This document shows positions 15,384 through 18,380 of a stretch of 64,000 bases of DNA, piece by piece. The notes beneath the pieces were generated by a model that saw only the letters and a program-made list of their open reading frames with translations, was not told where the DNA came from and searched no databases. Each line of letters opens with the position of its first letter. Within the stretch, counting starts at the first letter, position 1. The position numbers and the translations under genes were made by a program. Location: positions 11,115 through 75,114 of the forward strand of contig JAZDLN010000012.1 of the NCBI GenBank assembly GCA_043801965.1. The letters are read 5' to 3'. This DNA comes from Candidatus Falkowbacteria bacterium. Lineage in GTDB: Bacteria > Patescibacteriota > Patescibacteriia > Patescibacteriales > UBA12075.

Positions 15384-16112
15384 ATGAAATATAATGCCGA
15401 TATCCACCATCGCCGGTCGATACGGTTAAAAGGATATGATTATTCCCGGAACGGCGCATATTTTATTACCGTTTGCGCGCAGGACCGGGAATGTGTATTC
15501 GGAAAAATTGTGAACGGTGGAATATATTTAAACGATGCGGGCGAAATGGTCGATCGGCAATGGAATGAATTGCCGAATCGTTTTCGTAACGTCCGGTTGG
15601 GTGAATACATCGTCATGCCGAATCATTTTCACGGAATTATATTTATCGTCGGTACGCCCCCGGTAGGGGCACCCCTTGTGGGCGCCCCGAACAACGGCGC
15701 CCCGAACAACGGCGCCCCGCACGCGAACGCTGGGAATACGATACCCGGCGCACCCACCGCGTTTAGGGCACCCACCACGTTTAGGGCACCCACCGCGTTT
15801 AGGGCACCCACCACGTTTAGGGCACCCACAAGGGGTGCCCCTACGGTAACGGGTTGGACGGCGACAAATACGGTCGTTGGCGGTATTATCGGGGCGTTCA
15901 AATCGATCACGACCAACGAATATATTCGCGGGGTAAAAACCGATTTTTGGCAACCGTTCGACGGAAAATTGTGGCAACGCAATTATTACGAACATGTTAT
16001 CGGGAATGAAAACGAATTGAATCGTATCAAACAATATATAATCGATAACCCGTCAAAATGGAAAACGGACCGGAATAATCTGGATTTACGCGAACCGGCA
16101 GAAAAAATATGA
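15384..16112 (+). CDS. REP-associated tyrosine transposase (RAYT / IS200-like Y1 transposase) with expanded low-complexity loop
   Basis: N terminus RRSIRLKGYDYS..AYFITVC, HUH motif MPNHFHGIIFI, C-terminal FKSITTNEY..LWQRNYYEHVI (catalytic Tyr region) and IDNPSKW. About 55 extra residues, encoded by the repeats at 15663-15844, lie between the HUH and Tyr motifs. There is no SD or own promoter, and the start is 22 nt after the secA stop. Confidence 0.8.
   Translation: MKYNADIHHRRSIRLKGYDYSRNGAYFITVCAQDRECVFGKIVNGGIYLNDAGEMVDRQWNELPNRFRNVRLGEYIVMPNHFHGIIFIVGTPPVGAPLVGAPNNGAPNNGAPHANAGNTIPGAPTAFRAPTTFRAPTAFRAPTTFRAPTRGAPTVTGWTATNTVVGGIIGAFKSITTNEYIRGVKTDFWQPFDGKLWQRNYYEHVIGNENELNRIKQYIIDNPSKWKTDRNNLDLREPAEKI
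15663..15844. repeat. in-frame REP-like inverted doublet with internal tandem repeats inside the RAYT ORF
   Basis: GTAGGGGCACCCCTTGTGGGCGCC (15663-15686) and GGCACCCACAAGGGGTGCCCCTAC (15821-15844) are 23/24 reverse complements. Each is GTAGG plus a 7-bp-stem hairpin. Between them lie 2.5 copies of a 15-bp repeat (15681-15720) and 4 copies of an 18-bp repeat GCACCCACC(G/A)CGTTTAGG (15750-15821). Confidence 0.85.
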
Positions 16113-16684
16113 CCCAGACCGAACAATTATTGAAAATATTGCGTAAAAACGAAAATGCCCGGATGGTTTTGGACCGGGCCCGGGAATTGAATATGCCGAA
16201 TTGGCATCTCGGCGCCGGCGCTGTCGCGCAGACCGTCTGGAACATCAAACACGGCTTCGATCCGGAAAACGGCATTAAGGATTACGACCTGGTCTATTAT
16301 GACGCCGGAGATATTTCTTATGAAGCGGAAGATGGGTATATACAAAAAGGCAAAGAATTATTTAAAGATATTCCCGTCTCAGTGGAAATCAGAAATCAGG
16401 CCCGCGTACACCTATGGTATGAAAAACGCTTCGGGAAAAAGATCGGCCAATATAAATCCGCGGAGGAGGCGATAAGTACATGGCCGACAACGGCGACATC
16501 CGTCGGAATCAGACGGGAGAACGGGCGATTCCAGGTATACGCGCCGTTTGGTTTAGATGATCTCCTCGACATGATCGTAAGGGCGAATAAAACCTTAATA
16601 ACCGAAAAGATCTATCAGGATAAGGCAAAGAGGTGGATTGAATTTTGGCCGAATCTGAAAATAATACCGTGGGATCAGGAATAA
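16109..16684 (+). CDS. nucleotidyltransferase family protein (NTP_transf_6 / former DUF925-like)
   Basis: 191 aa with HLGAGAVAQTVWN..DYDLVYYD, the pattern of the Pol-beta-fold NTP_transf_6 family. The start overlaps the RAYT stop (ATGA). Confidence 0.6.
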   Translation: MTQTEQLLKILRKNENARMVLDRARELNMPNWHLGAGAVAQTVWNIKHGFDPENGIKDYDLVYYDAGDISYEAEDGYIQKGKELFKDIPVSVEIRNQARVHLWYEKRFGKKIGQYKSAEEAISTWPTTATSVGIRRENGRFQVYAPFGLDDLLDMIVRANKTLITEKIYQDKAKRWIEFWPNLKIIPWDQE

Positions 16685-16795
16685 GACCGGGAGATTCGGG
16701 CATGATATGGAAATTAAGAGTGAAAAACGATCATATCGGAGTATTTAAAAACCCGAACTCATGAGAGTCGGGTGTTTTGTTTTTAAGCGGCTTGA

Positions 16796-17218
16796 TCAGT
16801 AAGGAACGATTTTACCGTTGGCGCGGACGCGCGACCGGGTTTCTTCGACCGTCAAAACCAGCGATTGCATGGACGAGATGTCCGTTGGCCCGACAATAAG
16901 GCCGGTATCGATCTGCCAGATGGGATATCCTTTTAGGGCGATATATCGAGCTTCCCCGAAAACGCCGGCGCCCCATTTGCCGTCGCGGAAAGGCAGGAAA
17001 ATGCCGCCTTCGCATCCGGAAAGGACTTCCTGGAAAAAGTAATCCATGCCGTTGCCGCGCGTTTTTTTCCAGAGTTCATATCCTTCCTGGTGATTTTTCT
17101 GGTTGGGATTTTCGATATTCCAACCGGGAAAATGAGCGGCGATCTTTTCTAGCAGTTTAATTTCCAGATCCGTTCCGTAAACATTGACCGGATGGCCGAA
17201 ATACAATTTTTTTGGCAT
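16796..17218 (-). CDS. nucleoside 2-deoxyribosyltransferase-like (Rossmann-like) protein, tentative (SD-led)
   Basis: 140-aa ORF with GGGAGGA 4 nt upstream. The pattern KLYFGHP..NPN..C.GGIFLP....WGAGVFGEARYIALKGYPIW resembles the NDT-like fold with an acidic residue after a Gly-rich turn. The family assignment is weak. Confidence 0.4.
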   Translation of the reverse strand: MPKKLYFGHPVNVYGTDLEIKLLEKIAAHFPGWNIENPNQKNHQEGYELWKKTRGNGMDYFFQEVLSGCEGGIFLPFRDGKWGAGVFGEARYIALKGYPIWQIDTGLIVGPTDISSMQSLVLTVEETRSRVRANGKIVPY

Positions 17219-17269
17219 TATTTCCTCCCCGGGTTTATGTTTATCGGCCTTTATGAAGCCAATTACCCT

Positions 17270-17299
17270 ATATTACCTCCGGGATAAGACATTTGTCAA
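17270..17299 (-). promoter_or_regulatory. sigma70-like promoter for 16796-17218
   Basis: On the minus strand: TTGACA, 18-nt spacer, TAATAT. Confidence 0.55.
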
Positions 17300-17319
17300 C
17301 ACAGGTTTGCTTATTTTAG

Positions 17320-17348
17320 TTGACGCTCGCGGGCGATAATAGTATAAT
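17320..17348 (+). promoter_or_regulatory. sigma70-like promoter for 17427-18038
   Basis: TTGACG, 17-nt spacer, TATAAT. Divergent from the promoter at 17270-17299. Confidence 0.6.
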
Positions 17349-17426
17349 AGTATAAGCTAAGACATAACGTTCAAGCTCATTAAAATTTTTAAATTCAAAC
17401 GCGCATTTTCGATCGGGAGGGGTATC

Positions 17427-18038
17427 ATGAGGGGCAATAGAAAAGCAACCGGATTTTTTATTACGGGTCTTATTTTGACGATTATTTTGGGATGCGCCGG
17501 TCCGGGCGGCCACAACAAGTGGCTTCATAATTCCGATTTTAACAGCCTTCGCGACGCCGCGGAGCTTGGGCTCAAGTCTTTGGATGACATTAAGACAAGG
17601 GTCAATACCGTCATAGAGGAAAAAGCTTCCCCTGGGAGGTTAAAAGAACTCTTCGGCATCAATAATCTTGAGCGCTGGAGCGAAACCGATACCCAAAAGT
17701 ATTTTTTCCACAACGACAGCATTACCATCGGCCAGGTGCCAAAGGGCGTTCAGGACTGTATCCGCGATAATAAAAGCTATTATGCTTACGTATTGCCCGT
17801 AACGGCTTATACCGAGAAAGAGATCGGAAATTTTTTAAAGAATAAACTGAATTTCGAAGTAATAGGAGTGAAGGACGGCTATACATACTGGGCGATATTC
17901 GTTTACGACGAAAATGATCGTTTTGTGTATCATGAATGGAAAGAGTTGCCTATTTACAGCAAGAAAACCGATCGTGACCGCCTGGGCCCGCTCGGCAATA
18001 TGAGAGATCTGATGGAAAAGCCGAAGATAGGTTTTTAA
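17427..18038 (+). CDS. hypothetical lipoprotein (SD-led)
   Basis: 203 aa with lipobox TIILGC after a hydrophobic helix. GGGAGGGG lies upstream of the ATG. Confidence 0.6.
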   Translation: MRGNRKATGFFITGLILTIILGCAGPGGHNKWLHNSDFNSLRDAAELGLKSLDDIKTRVNTVIEEKASPGRLKELFGINNLERWSETDTQKYFFHNDSITIGQVPKGVQDCIRDNKSYYAYVLPVTAYTEKEIGNFLKNKLNFEVIGVKDGYTYWAIFVYDENDRFVYHEWKELPIYSKKTDRDRLGPLGNMRDLMEKPKIGF

Positions 18039-18050
18039 AAACAAACAAAT

Positions 18051-18085
18051 ACCCGCCTTTTTGCCTACAGGGGCGGGTTTAATTT
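18051..18085 (+). terminator. putative terminator after 17427-18038
   Basis: ACCCGCC / GGCGGGT stem with a 14-nt loop, followed by a weak T-rich tract TTTAATTTAATTT. Confidence 0.45.
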
Positions 18086-18090
18086 AATTT

Positions 18091-18127
18091 AAAAACAGAA
18101 AAAAAGCACCGGTTTTTATGGTGCTTT
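18091..18127 (-). terminator. intrinsic terminator of the 18133-18306 microprotein gene
   Basis: On the minus strand: AAAGCACC-ataaaaacc-GGTGCTTT followed by a T-run. Confidence 0.7.
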
Positions 18128-18132
18128 TATGG

Positions 18133-18306
18133 CTAAATACCGTCGTAATCGCGTCCGTCGGGGCCGCTATCCCAAGGTTGATCACTTGGGCCGTCAGGAC
18201 CCGTGTATCCGACGCCATCCGGACCGTCGTCAGATTGTCCGCGTCGGTCGCCACTGGGGCAAACGTCGTCAAAATCTGGGCTTTGGTCGGGCATTTTCCT
18301 GGCCAT
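18133..18306 (-). CDS. acidic Gly/Pro/Asp-rich microprotein, 57 aa (below the ORF-track cut-off; SD-led)
   Basis: Hand translation gives MARKMPDQSPDFDDVCPSGDRRGQSDDGPDGVGYTGPDGPSDQPWDSGPDGRDYDGI. GGAGGG lies 7 nt upstream. It has its own TTGACA-17-TATTAT promoter and a clean terminator. Confidence 0.55.
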   Translation of the reverse strand: MARKMPDQSPDFDDVCPSGDRRGQSDDGPDGVGYTGPDGPSDQPWDSGPDGRDYDGI

Positions 18307-18351
18307 TTTATTCCCTCCTTGTGAAAGACCCTTTGTTAGAAATTTGACGTT

Positions 18352-18380
18352 ATAATATCATTTAATATTATTTTTGTCAA
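18352..18380 (-). promoter_or_regulatory. sigma70-like promoter for the 18133-18306 gene
   Basis: On the minus strand: TTGACA, 17-nt spacer, TATTAT. Confidence 0.6.

Follow-up and report, generated by a model that had tools for sequence, protein, structure and literature searches.

A subclass 2.4 RAYT with in-frame REPs, probably inserted into a conserved secA-nucleotidyltransferase operon of Candidatus Falkowbacteria

Subclass 2.4 of the TnpA_REP/TnpA_Y1 proteins (Quentin, Siguier, Chandler & Fichant 2018, PMC6006769) corresponds to RAYT group 4 (Bertels et al. 2017, PMC5581495). In-frame REPs that lie between HuH and the Y motif are unique to this subclass (PMC6006769), and its patchy taxonomic spread resembles that of horizontally transferred genes. 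The E. coli TnpA_REP (REPtron; structure 4ER8) belongs to subclass 2.2. REP/BIME arrays lie on both sides of its gene, which lacks REPs of its own inside the ORF, its cognate substrate has the format of GTAG plus a hairpin, its residue R104 contacts the GTAG guide (PMC6006769), and the E. coli genome contains hundreds of REP copies. The IS200/IS605 TnpAs (IS608 and ISDra2) are also single-domain Y1 HUH enzymes with ssDNA hairpin substrates; their elements are multicopy, have subterminal hairpins at both ends, and often carry tnpB. In-frame palindromes encoding extra loop residues are tolerated in the case of intragenic REP/RPE insertions such as the Rickettsia RPEs (Di Nocera et al. 2013, PMC3733652), which are scattered across unrelated genes.

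How does a RAYT found between secA and secD in a CPR genome compare with these systems? The window analyzed here is a stretch of 64,000 nt, positions 11,115 to 75,114 (forward strand) of contig JAZDLN010000012.1, from a metagenome-assembled genome (MAG) of a Candidatus Falkowbacteria bacterium (GCA_043801965.1; GTDB lineage Bacteria; Patescibacteriota; Patescibacteriia; Patescibacteriales; UBA12075). The region studied is 15,384 to 18,380 of the window. The genes and junctions are as follows.

12548..15361, + strand: secA (Pfam SecA_DEAD and four further SecA domains), the upstream gene of the RAYT-carrying operon
15362..15383, + strand: secA-RAYT spacer of 22 nt, A/T-rich, with no Shine-Dalgarno (SD) site (sequence, junction alignment)
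15384..16112, + strand: RAYT, TnpA_REP subclass 2.4/Bertels group 4, 242 aa
16109..16112, + strand: ATGA overlap, the RAYT stop TGA lying within the nucleotidyltransferase start ATG-ACx
16109..16684, + strand: NTP_transf_6 (PF06042) nucleotidyltransferase (NTase), Pfam 189 bits, E 5e-56
16691..16741, no strand: position of the NUDIX gene of the sister genome, missing in the window (blastn gap)
16751..16785, + strand: bulged hairpin with a T-run after it, where the NTase and p140 genes converge, read by eye and unflagged by the consensus scan
16796..17218, - strand: p140, 140 aa, with its own promoter-like site and SD
17427..18038, + strand: putative lipoprotein, 203 aa, signal peptide ending ...IILGC
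18133..18306, - strand: acidic 57-aa protein with three GPDG motifs
18520..20598, + strand: secD with internal PPIC rotamase domains (Pfam), the downstream edge of the block, kept in the sister contigs L087/L088

Because of a 70-residue insert, the RAYT ORF does not reach the curated cutoffs: it scores 21.6 bits where Pfam Y1_Tnp demands 23, and 50 where NCBIfam REP_Tyr_transpos demands 80. Despite these low domain scores, its identity, already proposed in a preliminary description made from the sequence, is secure. It has 7846 homologues, the profile of its family matches the E. coli TnpA_REP 4ER8 (E 5e-6) at very low sequence identity, and all of the top 30 Foldseek matches of the model are Y1 HUH transposases, the best being the IS200/IS605 TnpAs (prob 1.00, TM 0.57-0.71, target-normalised). 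In the profile alignment with 4ER8, the HUH, W-Q, Y218, and N222 residues are aligned, Y218 being equivalent to the catalytic Y115. The protein has the fold and catalytic residues of the E. coli enzyme and the HUH + Tyr core of subclass 2.4, and it is a single-domain HUH/Tyr ssDNA endonuclease of that subclass. The following elements were located inside the ORF.

15615..15638, + strand: HUH motif M78-PNHFHGI-85, invariant in the family alignment and aligned with VVLPEHMHCI of 4ER8
15663..15687, + strand: forward REP arm, GTAG + GGGCACCC-CTTGT-GGGCGCCC, one stem mismatch, in-frame VGAPLVGA
15681..15719, + strand: 15-nt tandem repeat x2.6 (GGCGCCCCGAACAAC), encoding GAPNN repeats (Tandem Repeats Finder, 100% matches)
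15750..15829, + strand: 18-nt tandem repeat x4.4 (GCACCCACCRCGTTTAGG), encoding APT(A/T)FR repeats (Tandem Repeats Finder, 95% matches)
15820..15844, - strand: reverse REP arm, GTAG + GGGCACCC-CTTGT-GGGTGCCC, perfect 8-bp stem, the + strand reading RAPTRGAPT
15972..16052, + strand: C-terminal catalytic helix region, W197-Q198...E203-H204...Y218...N222-P223 (4ER8 profile alignment; invariant columns)
16002..16004, + strand: codon GGG for G207, equivalent in position to E. coli R104

A 30-nt inverted repeat within the RAYT ORF (15663-15692/15815-15844) had been overlooked in the preliminary description. It encloses the two tandem repeats. It was revealed that the 70-residue low-complexity insert is the translation of an in-frame inverted REP pair (GTAG-GGGCACCC-CTTGT-GGGYGCCC) around these repeats, the 15-nt unit being copied from the inner end of the forward arm and the 18-nt unit from the inner half-stem of the reverse arm. 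The two arms form a REPIN-like inverted doublet with a predicted folding energy of -58.9 kcal/mol (z -3.1) for the DNA; for the RNA it is -104 kcal/mol (z -5.1). The insert (residues 93-162) was modeled with pLDDT <50 (33-36 for the insert), and this segment is predicted to encode a disordered surface loop. GTAG-hairpin units exist at the matching site in 63 of 71 relatives, on both strands in 47 of the 71, and the forward arm is read in the VGA frame in 49 of 59 relatives. Of 140 GT[AG]GGG sites, 93 precede a perfect hairpin with a stem of 7 bp or more (0.1 expected), with 31 distinct stems. As in subclass 2.4, the insertion lies between beta3 (HUH) and alphaC, is variable, combines in-frame REPs with short repeats in a peripheral loop, and has REPs in which GTAG stands 5' and three G-C pairs form the foot of the stem; the patchy, HGT-like occurrence is also shared. 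The GTAG + hairpin format is that of the E. coli substrate too. In contrast to the scattered REP/RPE insertions, the host gene here is the REP's own transposase and the position is constant family-wide. The differences from subclass 2.4 are the CPR (Falkowbacteria) host, the bare ORF in a housekeeping operon, a Gly at the conserved GTAG-contact Arg, and the absence of flanking or extragenic REPs in the 64-kb window. Nor were the subterminal hairpins, multiple copies, or tnpB of IS200/IS605 seen for this RAYT.

Is the whole segment between secA and secD an accessory islet, as had been suggested? A comparison with the sister Falkowbacteria contig L088 speaks against this. The two contigs share 85-93% nucleotide identity across 9986-23000 (blastn) with two indels only: 108 nt of L088 correspond to window 15355-16177, which contains the RAYT, and 509 nt of L088 with the NUDIX gene (153 aa) correspond to window 16691-16741. 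The L087/L088 gene tables read secA, NTase, NUDIX, p140(-), 203 aa, 57 aa(-), and secD. Thus, the relative has every gene of the supposed islet in the same order except the RAYT, which is the sole extra gene in the window, while the NUDIX gene is missing from it. SecA is 95.6% identical between the two (pN/pS 0.09), and the comparison with the sister genome shows purifying selection on each of the four genes other than the RAYT (pN/pS 0.16-0.43). The secA-secD block is therefore conserved Falkowbacteria synteny, in which only the RAYT is accessory. Moreover, NTP_transf_6 follows secA at 1-26 nt, RAYT-free, in four other CPR contig groups (L087/88, L089/90, L093, and L094).

These four RAYT-less contig groups are the basis on which I infer a probable gain in this lineage rather than losses elsewhere; on the other side, flanking REPs, a target-site signature, and a conserved terminal motif were not found around the RAYT. 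It is quite improbable that the window shows the old state, with a RAYT present from the start between secA and the NTase and then lost by precise deletion from the sister Falkowbacteria and from the other CPR lineages. Losses of RAYTs are known from other bacteria (PMC6006769), and neither a target-site duplication nor terminal repeats mark an insertion. However, at least four independent clean deletions would be needed, each restoring an SD-containing spacer of 1-26 nt, the RAYT core composition is unlike that of its neighbors (GC3 0.47 vs 0.53-0.69), and the nearest homologue (P0002) is only 57% identical, in another phylum and another context. A chimeric join in the assembly or binning is barely conceivable. 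The source is a MAG and only one protein, from one contig, makes up the RAYT cluster, but a complete, in-frame, family-typical ORF is fitted exactly into the interval from a stop codon to a start codon, and both flanks are collinear with the sister genome, which is not expected of a chimera.

At the upstream junction, coordinates and scans agree with the preliminary description: the RAYT starts 22 nt past the secA stop, with neither an SD nor a sigma-70-like promoter upstream of 15384. The sister genome has instead a 26-nt secA-NTase spacer with an SD. GGGGAG/GGAGGG lies 7 nt upstream of the NTase ATG in L088 and L089, while the junction alignment gave no SD at the matching position for the window NTase. 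The reported ATGA overlap is likewise present. Since the NTase family consensus opens with MT and the L089 NTase also starts with ATGAC, the overlap results from the RAYT ORF running into the native ATGAC start of the NTase. The identical 4-nt overlap was found for other subclass 2.4 RAYTs with AAA ATPase, Y-family polymerase, sulfatase, HsdM, and HsdR genes downstream; the downstream partners of these tightly embedded RAYTs are mutually unrelated. P0002 is also wedged, 3 nt past hsdM.

The missing SD also bears on whether the RAYT is a catalytically crippled passenger, a possible but doubtful reading that is compatible with an insertion and differs only on enzyme activity. Its ORF would be kept open because the SD-less NTase needs ribosomes at the ATGA junction. 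The position of G207 is occupied by Arg in 116 of 118 homologues, so the enzyme may be impaired, and the lack of extragenic REP copies is consistent with this. On the other hand, the remaining catalytic and invariant residues are all intact, a single substitution may shift specificity rather than abolish activity, the REP count covers the 64-kb window only, and G207 could be a MAG consensus error.

The NTP_transf_6 call was confirmed by the full-length PF06042 match. Among its NTase-fold motifs, G35/G37 and D58/D60 do not vary; the hG[GS] and DxD motifs are conserved as in PF06042/DUF925 (NTase-fold classification of Kuchta et al. 2009, PMC2794190), and there is no difference at the family level. 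The sole solved relative, 2LA3, is annotated as an 'uncharacterized protein'. In CPR, the conserved position of the NTase is downstream of secA, and none of the papers found describes such tight secA linkage in CPR.

The p140 family has 284 homologues and 862 representative clusters, but no Pfam, PDB-sequence, or hhalign match. The AF2 model (pLDDT 95) gave Foldseek matches to TIR, ThsB, DNPH1, NDT, and YtoQ (TM 0.45-0.57, best E 1e-3). Thus, the proposed NDT likeness holds for the fold class and fails at the sequence level. p140 represents a CPR-wide orphan family with, by its model, a flavodoxin-like NDT/DNPH1/TIR-class fold, and it lies outside the insertion (90.7% identity to the sister genome). 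The likeness extends to the three-layer fold, a 'YFG' motif in the N-terminal beta1, the invariant Asp and Glu after beta4, and family fusions to nucleotide-handling domains (NT5C, PHP, and AAA_33). In contrast, neither sequences nor profiles show any detectable similarity, the TM is only ~0.5, E89/D79 are candidate catalytic equivalents, and the context is neither Thoeris-like nor that of other defence systems. p140 most likely serves nucleotide salvage as a divergent N-glycosidase or transferase of the NDT/DNPH1 type.

The preliminary description had further regarded the RAYT as domesticated and coupled to the NTase, with p140 perhaps completing a nucleotide-modifying or signalling module. 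The real overlap, the missing RAYT signals, the p140 fold, and the view of RAYTs as a domesticated class (PMC5581495) fit this idea, which is nonetheless very improbable. RAYT-NTase adjacency is restricted to this contig (0/80 RAYT loci and 0/80 NTase loci examined), and the sister genome, though RAYT-less, keeps the NTase, p140, and the other genes. NTase/p140 pairing is not conserved beyond Falkowbacteria (0/80 NTase loci), the p140 contexts L081, L083, and L085 have no NTase, the two genes are convergent and separate transcription units, and PADLOC matched no protein. There is no support for a defence or signalling system, and no RAYT-NTase-p140 functional system.

The hairpin at 16751..16785 is probably a terminator shared by the NTase and p140. 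As described before, p140 and the two genes downstream are SD-led and self-promoted, each with a GGAGG-type SD and a promoter-like site (10-11/12). The 203-aa protein has no family match (Pfam, NCBIfam), is conserved in the sister genome (pN/pS 0.16), and with its signal peptide is a plausible lipoprotein; its promoter-like site is at 17320-17348 (11/12) and a terminator-like site at 18051-18078. The 57-aa microprotein is a real gene, with 77% aa identity to the sister (pN/pS 0.43), a gene call in L087, and a promoter-like site from 18380 to 18352 (11/12 with TG).

Taken together, a single RAYT has likely been inserted into a conserved secA-NTase operon of a conserved Falkowbacteria block. This operon would be the ancestral core, with the p140, lipoprotein, and microprotein genes after it as separate transcription units. 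A foreign subclass 2.4 RAYT probably entered the ~26-nt spacer as a bare ORF in this genome's lineage. As in most members of its subclass, its cognate REPs (GTAG plus a GC-footed hairpin of 8 bp) form an inverted pair after the HUH strand and before the next helix, and slippage-type tandem copies of REP half-stems fill the interval between the two REPs. The insertion would have removed the SD of the NTase; thus, judging from the anatomy, read-through from secA probably provides the RAYT transcript, and ribosomes terminating on the RAYT probably reinitiate at the ATGA junction to translate the NTase. Expression downstream might be hindered by the intragenic hairpin, which is very stable. The REP-in-ORF anatomy is a clean case of the published hallmark of subclass 2.4 and not a new system, and the conserved coupling is that of secA to the NTase rather than of the RAYT to the NTase.

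It was found that the five ORFs which the preliminary description had placed between secA and secD are all present:

15384-16112, + strand: RAYT, 242 aa (TnpA_REP subclass 2.4, Bertels group 4)
16109-16684, + strand: NTP_transf_6 nucleotidyltransferase (NTase), 191 aa
16796-17218, - strand: p140, 140 aa
17427-18038, + strand: putative lipoprotein, 203 aa
18133-18306, - strand: microprotein, 57 aa

Their reading as an accessory islet was not borne out by a sister Falkowbacteria genome, whose contig (loci L087 and L088) has the same genes in the same order, with the RAYT alone being new in the window. 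The sister order is M50 protease, hpf, DUF6811, secA, NTP_transf_6, NUDIX, p140 (- strand), the 203-aa ORF, the 57-aa ORF (- strand), secD (with rotamase domains), IMPase, and secF. A blastn alignment of window positions 9900-23000 with L088 has 85-93% identity and is interrupted by exactly two indels. At the first, window positions 15355-16177, corresponding to the RAYT, stand in place of 108 nt of L088. At the second, positions 16691-16741 stand in place of 509 nt of L088, corresponding to a NUDIX gene that is missing from the window. Since the NUDIX gene is cleanly missing on one side of the NTase, both flanks of the NTase are indel hot spots. The pN/pS values against the sister genome (secA 0.09, NTase 0.30, p140 0.24, lipoprotein 0.16, microprotein 0.43, and secD 0.09) indicate that all six are real, selected genes. 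In summary, the RAYT is the sole gene-content gain relative to this close relative, lies in the secA-NTase spacer, and has removed the Shine-Dalgarno (SD) sequence of the NTase. The apparent islet consists of synteny conserved in CPR, into which a single RAYT has been inserted.

A few features of the surrounding genes were noted in passing. The sister NUDIX gene (153 aa, L088 8618-9079) starts 3 nt past the NTase stop codon and has a weak PADLOC match (PDC-S07, 5e-8). The periplasmic P1 region of SecD (18520-20598) contains an insertion of PPIC-type rotamase domains, matched in two stretches by Rotamase_3 (E 1e-41), an architecture shared with L087/L088, and an inositol-monophosphatase-family gene (20610-21383) lies between secD and secF. 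A Cys-rich DUF6811 ORF (11863-12318, E 1e-26) lies within a GC-rich patch just 5′ of secA, and its position is conserved in the sister genome.

Which neighbors belong together? The conserved pair is secA-NTase, with the RAYT ORF filling the spacer between them. A same-strand PF06042 gene follows secA within 1-26 nt in four independent CPR contig groups, in addition to the window, and this pair constitutes a conserved CPR operon. NTase loci further removed (56% identity or less) lack the adjacency.

Coordinates of the secA-NTase pairs and lengths of their spacers
Window: 12548-16684; spacer filled by the RAYT
L087/L088 (sister contig): 5164-8615; 26 nt
L089/L090: 3385-6579; 12 nt
L093: 2139-5499; about 1 nt
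L094: 2227-5194; about 1 nt

In the window, secA ends at 15361 and the RAYT starts at 15384, 22 nt further on. The 9-nt upstream gap given by an ORF-based neighbor finder is due to a spurious alternate-frame ORF. Neither a GGAGG-like sequence nor a promoter-like site was found 5′ of 15384, in agreement with the earlier remark that the RAYT lacks an SD and a promoter of its own. The RAYT is probably transcribed by read-through from secA. At its 3′ end (16112), the TGA stop codon overlaps the ATG start codon of the NTase at 16109. The consensus N-terminus of the NTase family is MT, and the L089 NTase also opens with ATGAC; thus, the RAYT ends on a TGA that lies within the native start of the NTase. 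An SD-like sequence lies 7 nt before the NTase start codon in L088 (GGGGAG) and L089 (GGAGGG), while there is none in the window. Translation of the NTase would now rely on termination-reinitiation at the ATGA.

The identity to the sister homologue is just 77% for the NTase, versus 95% for secA, and it was considered whether the whole RAYT-NTase block had been replaced by a xenologous copy via recombination. This was rejected because, relative to the CPR consensus, the window and sister NTases have derived residues in common, and because the NTase pS (0.42) is comparable to the value for the lipoprotein gene (0.38). Relaxed constraint, as suggested by the pN/pS of 0.30, fits the divergence of the NTase better than xenologous replacement.

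The gene calls of the preliminary description were good. The NTase matches PF06042 over its full length (189.3 bits against a cutoff of 25, E 5e-56, profile positions 2-159 of 159), and the G-x-G and D-x-D motifs of the NTase fold (G35, G37, D58, and D60) are invariant in the family alignment. The sole solved relative is 2LA3, an "uncharacterized protein", and a literature search for PF06042 found only the 2009 NTase-fold classification. The RAYT call is supported by a family profile match to the E. coli TnpA_REP structure 4ER8 and by a Y1 fold. The RAYT itself scores below threshold in both Pfam PF01797 (21.6 bits against a cutoff of 23) and NCBIfam NF047646 (50.4 bits against 80), because a repeat-rich insert in mid-protein splits the domain. 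The precomputed PF01797 annotation is likewise missing from most RAYT homologues in the family search. A single-sequence phmmer search against PDB sequences found no link, and only the family profile succeeded, aligning with 4ER8 (E 5e-6) at the HUH motif, W197-Q198, E203-H204, Y218, and N222. The HUH motif MPNHFHGI (residues 78-85) is invariant in the family alignment and corresponds to LPEHMHCI of 4ER8. Y218 and N222 of the C-terminal helix (QYIIDNP) align with DYIYINP, at the positions of E. coli Y115 and N119, and both columns are invariant. The AlphaFold2 model of the RAYT has a core with pLDDT 82-97, while residues 93-162 fall below 50; the best 30 PDB matches of the model are all Y1 HUH transposases (IS608, ISDra2, IS200 TnpA, and 4ER8; probability 0.99-1.00).

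It is known that W94, Q95, and R104 of the E. coli enzyme contact the GTAG guide and that R104 is conserved in subclass 2.4 (PMC6006769). The window RAYT has the first two (W197 and Q198), while the R104 position is occupied by G207 (codon GGG, 16002-16004), where 116 of 118 homologues have Arg. This residue would be accounted for by a single base change that turned CGG or AGG into GGG. Judging from the alignment and the model, the enzyme core looks intact apart from the G207 oddity. If the NTase depends on reinitiation at the ATGA, this would select for an open RAYT ORF even with an impaired enzyme. The nearest RAYT homologue, from Peregrinibacteria, is just 57% identical, and the GC3 of the RAYT core (0.47) is the lowest in the neighborhood (neighbors, 0.53-0.69).

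The RAYT family has more than 7800 members of 184-338 aa, and all the length variation occurs at a single site directly after the HUH strand. In the window RAYT, the insert at this site contains a 30-nt inverted repeat (15663-15692 and 15815-15844, 90% complementary) enclosing a 15-nt repeat (2.6 copies) and an 18-nt repeat (4.4 copies), all in frame. The cognate REP is GTAG-GGGCACCC-CTTGT-GGGTGCCC, with arms at 15663-15687 and 15820-15844, each consisting of GTAG followed by GGGCACCC-CTTGT-GGG(C/T)GCCC. These arms are canonical REPs, in which the guide tetranucleotide stands at the base of a hairpin with a GC foot. They are mutually inverted in a REPIN-like manner, and the tandem repeats are copies of their inner half-stems. 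The folding energy of the segment is -58.9 kcal/mol as DNA (z -3.1) and -104 kcal/mol as RNA (z -5.1). According to Quentin, Siguier, Chandler, and Fichant (2018), TnpA_Y1 subclass 2.4, which is Bertels' RAYT group 4, has in-frame REPs within the tnpA_REP genes, between HuH and Y, as a "unique feature"; its variable length is explained by short DNA repeats, and the foot of the REP stem has three G-C pairs (PMC6006769). Intragenic REPs in other genes were reported by Di Nocera et al. in 2013 (PMC3733652). The low-complexity middle of the window RAYT is this published in-frame REP insertion. The doublet was initially taken for a new discovery, but this was rejected since it is already the hallmark of subclass 2.4 (PMC6006769). 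The window RAYT shares with the subclass the HUH motif, the Tyr and Asn residues, the Y1 fold, the in-frame REP insert, and GT[AG]G with a GC-footed hairpin. Unlike a REPtron, it has no flanking or dispersed REPs within 64 kb. The REP string for the question of extragenic copies in the source genome is GTAGGGGCACCCCTTGTGGGYGCCC; no extragenic copy occurs within the 64-kb window, where the sole two copies are inside the RAYT ORF and the RAYT is itself single-copy.

The insert was then compared across RAYT relatives at 80 genome loci of many phyla, 71 of which have genes analyzable for such units. At least one intragenic GTAG-hairpin unit is present at the insert site in 63 of the 71 genes, and units on both strands in 47. 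The unit density is 6.7 per kb inside versus 0.2 per kb outside. A covariation count on pre-selected hairpins was dropped as circular, and an unbiased site test with shuffles was used instead: a perfect hairpin of 7 bp or more immediately follows 93 of the 140 GT[AG]GGG sites in the variable segments, compared with 0.1 in shuffles. The 31 distinct inner stems among these hairpins indicate compensatory change. The forward REP is read V-G-A in 49 of 59 cases (RAYT genes of L001-L080), while the reverse arm uses two frames in the same genes, A-P-T in 28 cases and x-P-L in 25. A reverse-oriented REP lies 8-15 nt 5′ of the ATG in about one quarter of the relatives at these loci. Flanking REP-like units were found in 19 of 41 relatives.

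A different palindrome lies 19 nt 5′ of secD (18455-18501). It is a perfect 20-bp palindrome of a "double-foot" format, T-GTAG-GAACGGAAC-CATG-GTTCCGTTC-CTAC-A. It was considered as a dispersed REP and rejected, being single-copy in the window and kept in the RAYT-less sister (L088 10813-10853). It may be a regulatory hairpin or a terminator.

Is the RAYT coupled to an NTase elsewhere? The adjacency was not found at any of 80 RAYT and 80 NTase loci. When the NTase, p140, lipoprotein, microprotein, SecA, and SecD were used as tblastn queries, no match lay within 4 kb of any of the 80 RAYT loci, and neither a RAYT nor p140 was found near the NTase at any of the 80 metagenomic NTase loci. Among the RAYT relatives with enough flanking sequence (about 40), a same-strand ORF lies within 30 nt upstream in 10 and downstream in nine, and six relatives have a 4-nt ATGA-type overlap with the same-strand downstream ORF. 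Within subclass 2.4, a minority of RAYTs is thus recurrently set tightly among co-directional genes. The closest RAYT homologue (P0002) begins 3 nt after hsdM. The downstream partners of embedded RAYTs are an AAA ATPase, RhuM, a Ser/Thr kinase, a Y-family polymerase, a sulfatase, HsdM, HsdR, and a DUF6933-Y1_Tnp protein, with no family in common. In the last case (L064 4685-5869), the gene right after the RAYT encodes a protein in which DUF6933 is joined with a second Y1_Tnp domain (E 2e-11). No conserved target, terminal, or flanking motif was found around the RAYT ORFs. Four of 12 examined tightly embedded subclass 2.4 RAYTs lie in type I restriction-modification operons, which may be a preferred landing site.

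RAYTs embedded in restriction-modification operons
L015: 4613-5617, RhuM
L063: 3347-4840, HsdM
L065: 4753-7998, HsdR
L173: 3513-6310, hsdM-RAYT-hsdS

RAYT genes are generally viewed as vertically inherited and REP-flanked, and their mobility is usually considered absent. It might be speculated that subclass 2.4 RAYTs move as bare ORFs without flanking REPs, the in-frame REP doublet being kept as a selected cis-element, but I consider this improbable. Such mobility would explain the stop-to-start placement of the window RAYT (between secA and the NTase) and of its closest homologue (between hsdM and hsdS), the recurring ATGA-type overlaps with unrelated downstream genes, and the fixation of the forward REP in the VGA frame across phyla. 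The doublet could then serve either as a master REPIN in a sheltered position or as a recognition and regulatory hairpin of the enzyme itself.

The remaining ORFs of the supposed islet (p140, the lipoprotein, and the microprotein) each have a GGAGG-type SD and a sigma-70-like site (10-11/12). The putative lipoprotein has an N-terminus, MRGNRKATGFFITGLILTIILGCAG, with a positive n-region, a hydrophobic h-region, and Cys22. No Rfam match was found in 11000-23000. p140 has 284 close homologues, nearly all from CPR, and 862 representative clusters in an exhaustive search; its E89 and D79 within 'RDGKWGAGVFGEA' are invariant and are candidate catalytic residues, the nucleophile of the NDT/DNPH1 superfamily being a Glu after beta4. 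The likeness of p140 to nucleoside deoxyribosyltransferases (NDTs) may hold at the level of the fold. The AlphaFold2 model (pLDDT 95) has TIR, ThsB, DNPH1, nucleoside 2′-deoxyribosyltransferase, and YtoQ as Foldseek neighbors with probability 0.97-1.0, but with E values of 1e-3 or more and TM scores of 0.45-0.57. At the sequence level, the likeness was not supported: p140 was matched by nothing in Pfam, NCBIfam, the PDB sequences, PADLOC, or PHROGs, 39 family members have no Pfam match at E ≤ 1 (NDT-type models included), and the hhalign probabilities against NDT and DNPH1, both provisional reference sequences that serve as a lead only, are 2% or less and not significant. Longer members of the family (such as P0364, P0379, and P0510) are fused to an NT5C 5′(3′)-deoxyribonucleotidase, a PHP phosphoesterase, or AAA_33 kinase-type and ABC1 kinase-like domains, and these partners point to nucleotide metabolism. 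Taken together, the neighbors of the predicted fold and the fusions suggest that p140 is an N-glycosidase or transferase of nucleotide salvage, a route on which CPR organisms are generally reported to depend heavily.

The homologues of p140 are found beside suf genes and sigma-70 (L081), convergent to secA (L083), or among genes of unknown function (L085). In L083, from Liptonbacteria, a 140-aa ORF (5492-5914) lies between secA and the convergent p140 homologue, which is the NTase slot of Falkowbacteria; this ORF resembles none of the window proteins. Among the loci examined (L081, L083, L085, and the 80 NTase loci), the NTase and p140 do not occur together outside Falkowbacteria. No window protein has a PADLOC match (E ≤ 0.1) or a PHROGs match. 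Thus, the suggested nucleotide-modifying or nucleotide-signaling pair was not supported, and the locus differs from CBASS and Thoeris-like defense in lacking both such a match and a conserved NTase-p140 co-occurrence.

These results mostly matter as a correction of the islet reading. They also flag two conserved CPR genes of unassigned function, the secA-linked PF06042 NTase and the p140 family, which has a predicted NDT/TIR-type fold and nucleotide-handling fusion partners. As the insertion removed the downstream SD, the locus is a natural test of whether translational coupling keeps a selfish ORF open. If bare-ORF mobility were true, the window and its RAYT-less sister would be a natural before/after pair for the mobility of RAYT genes. 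Two genomes that are about 89% identical and differ by a bare RAYT ORF in an operon spacer provide a concrete case for how RAYT genes move.
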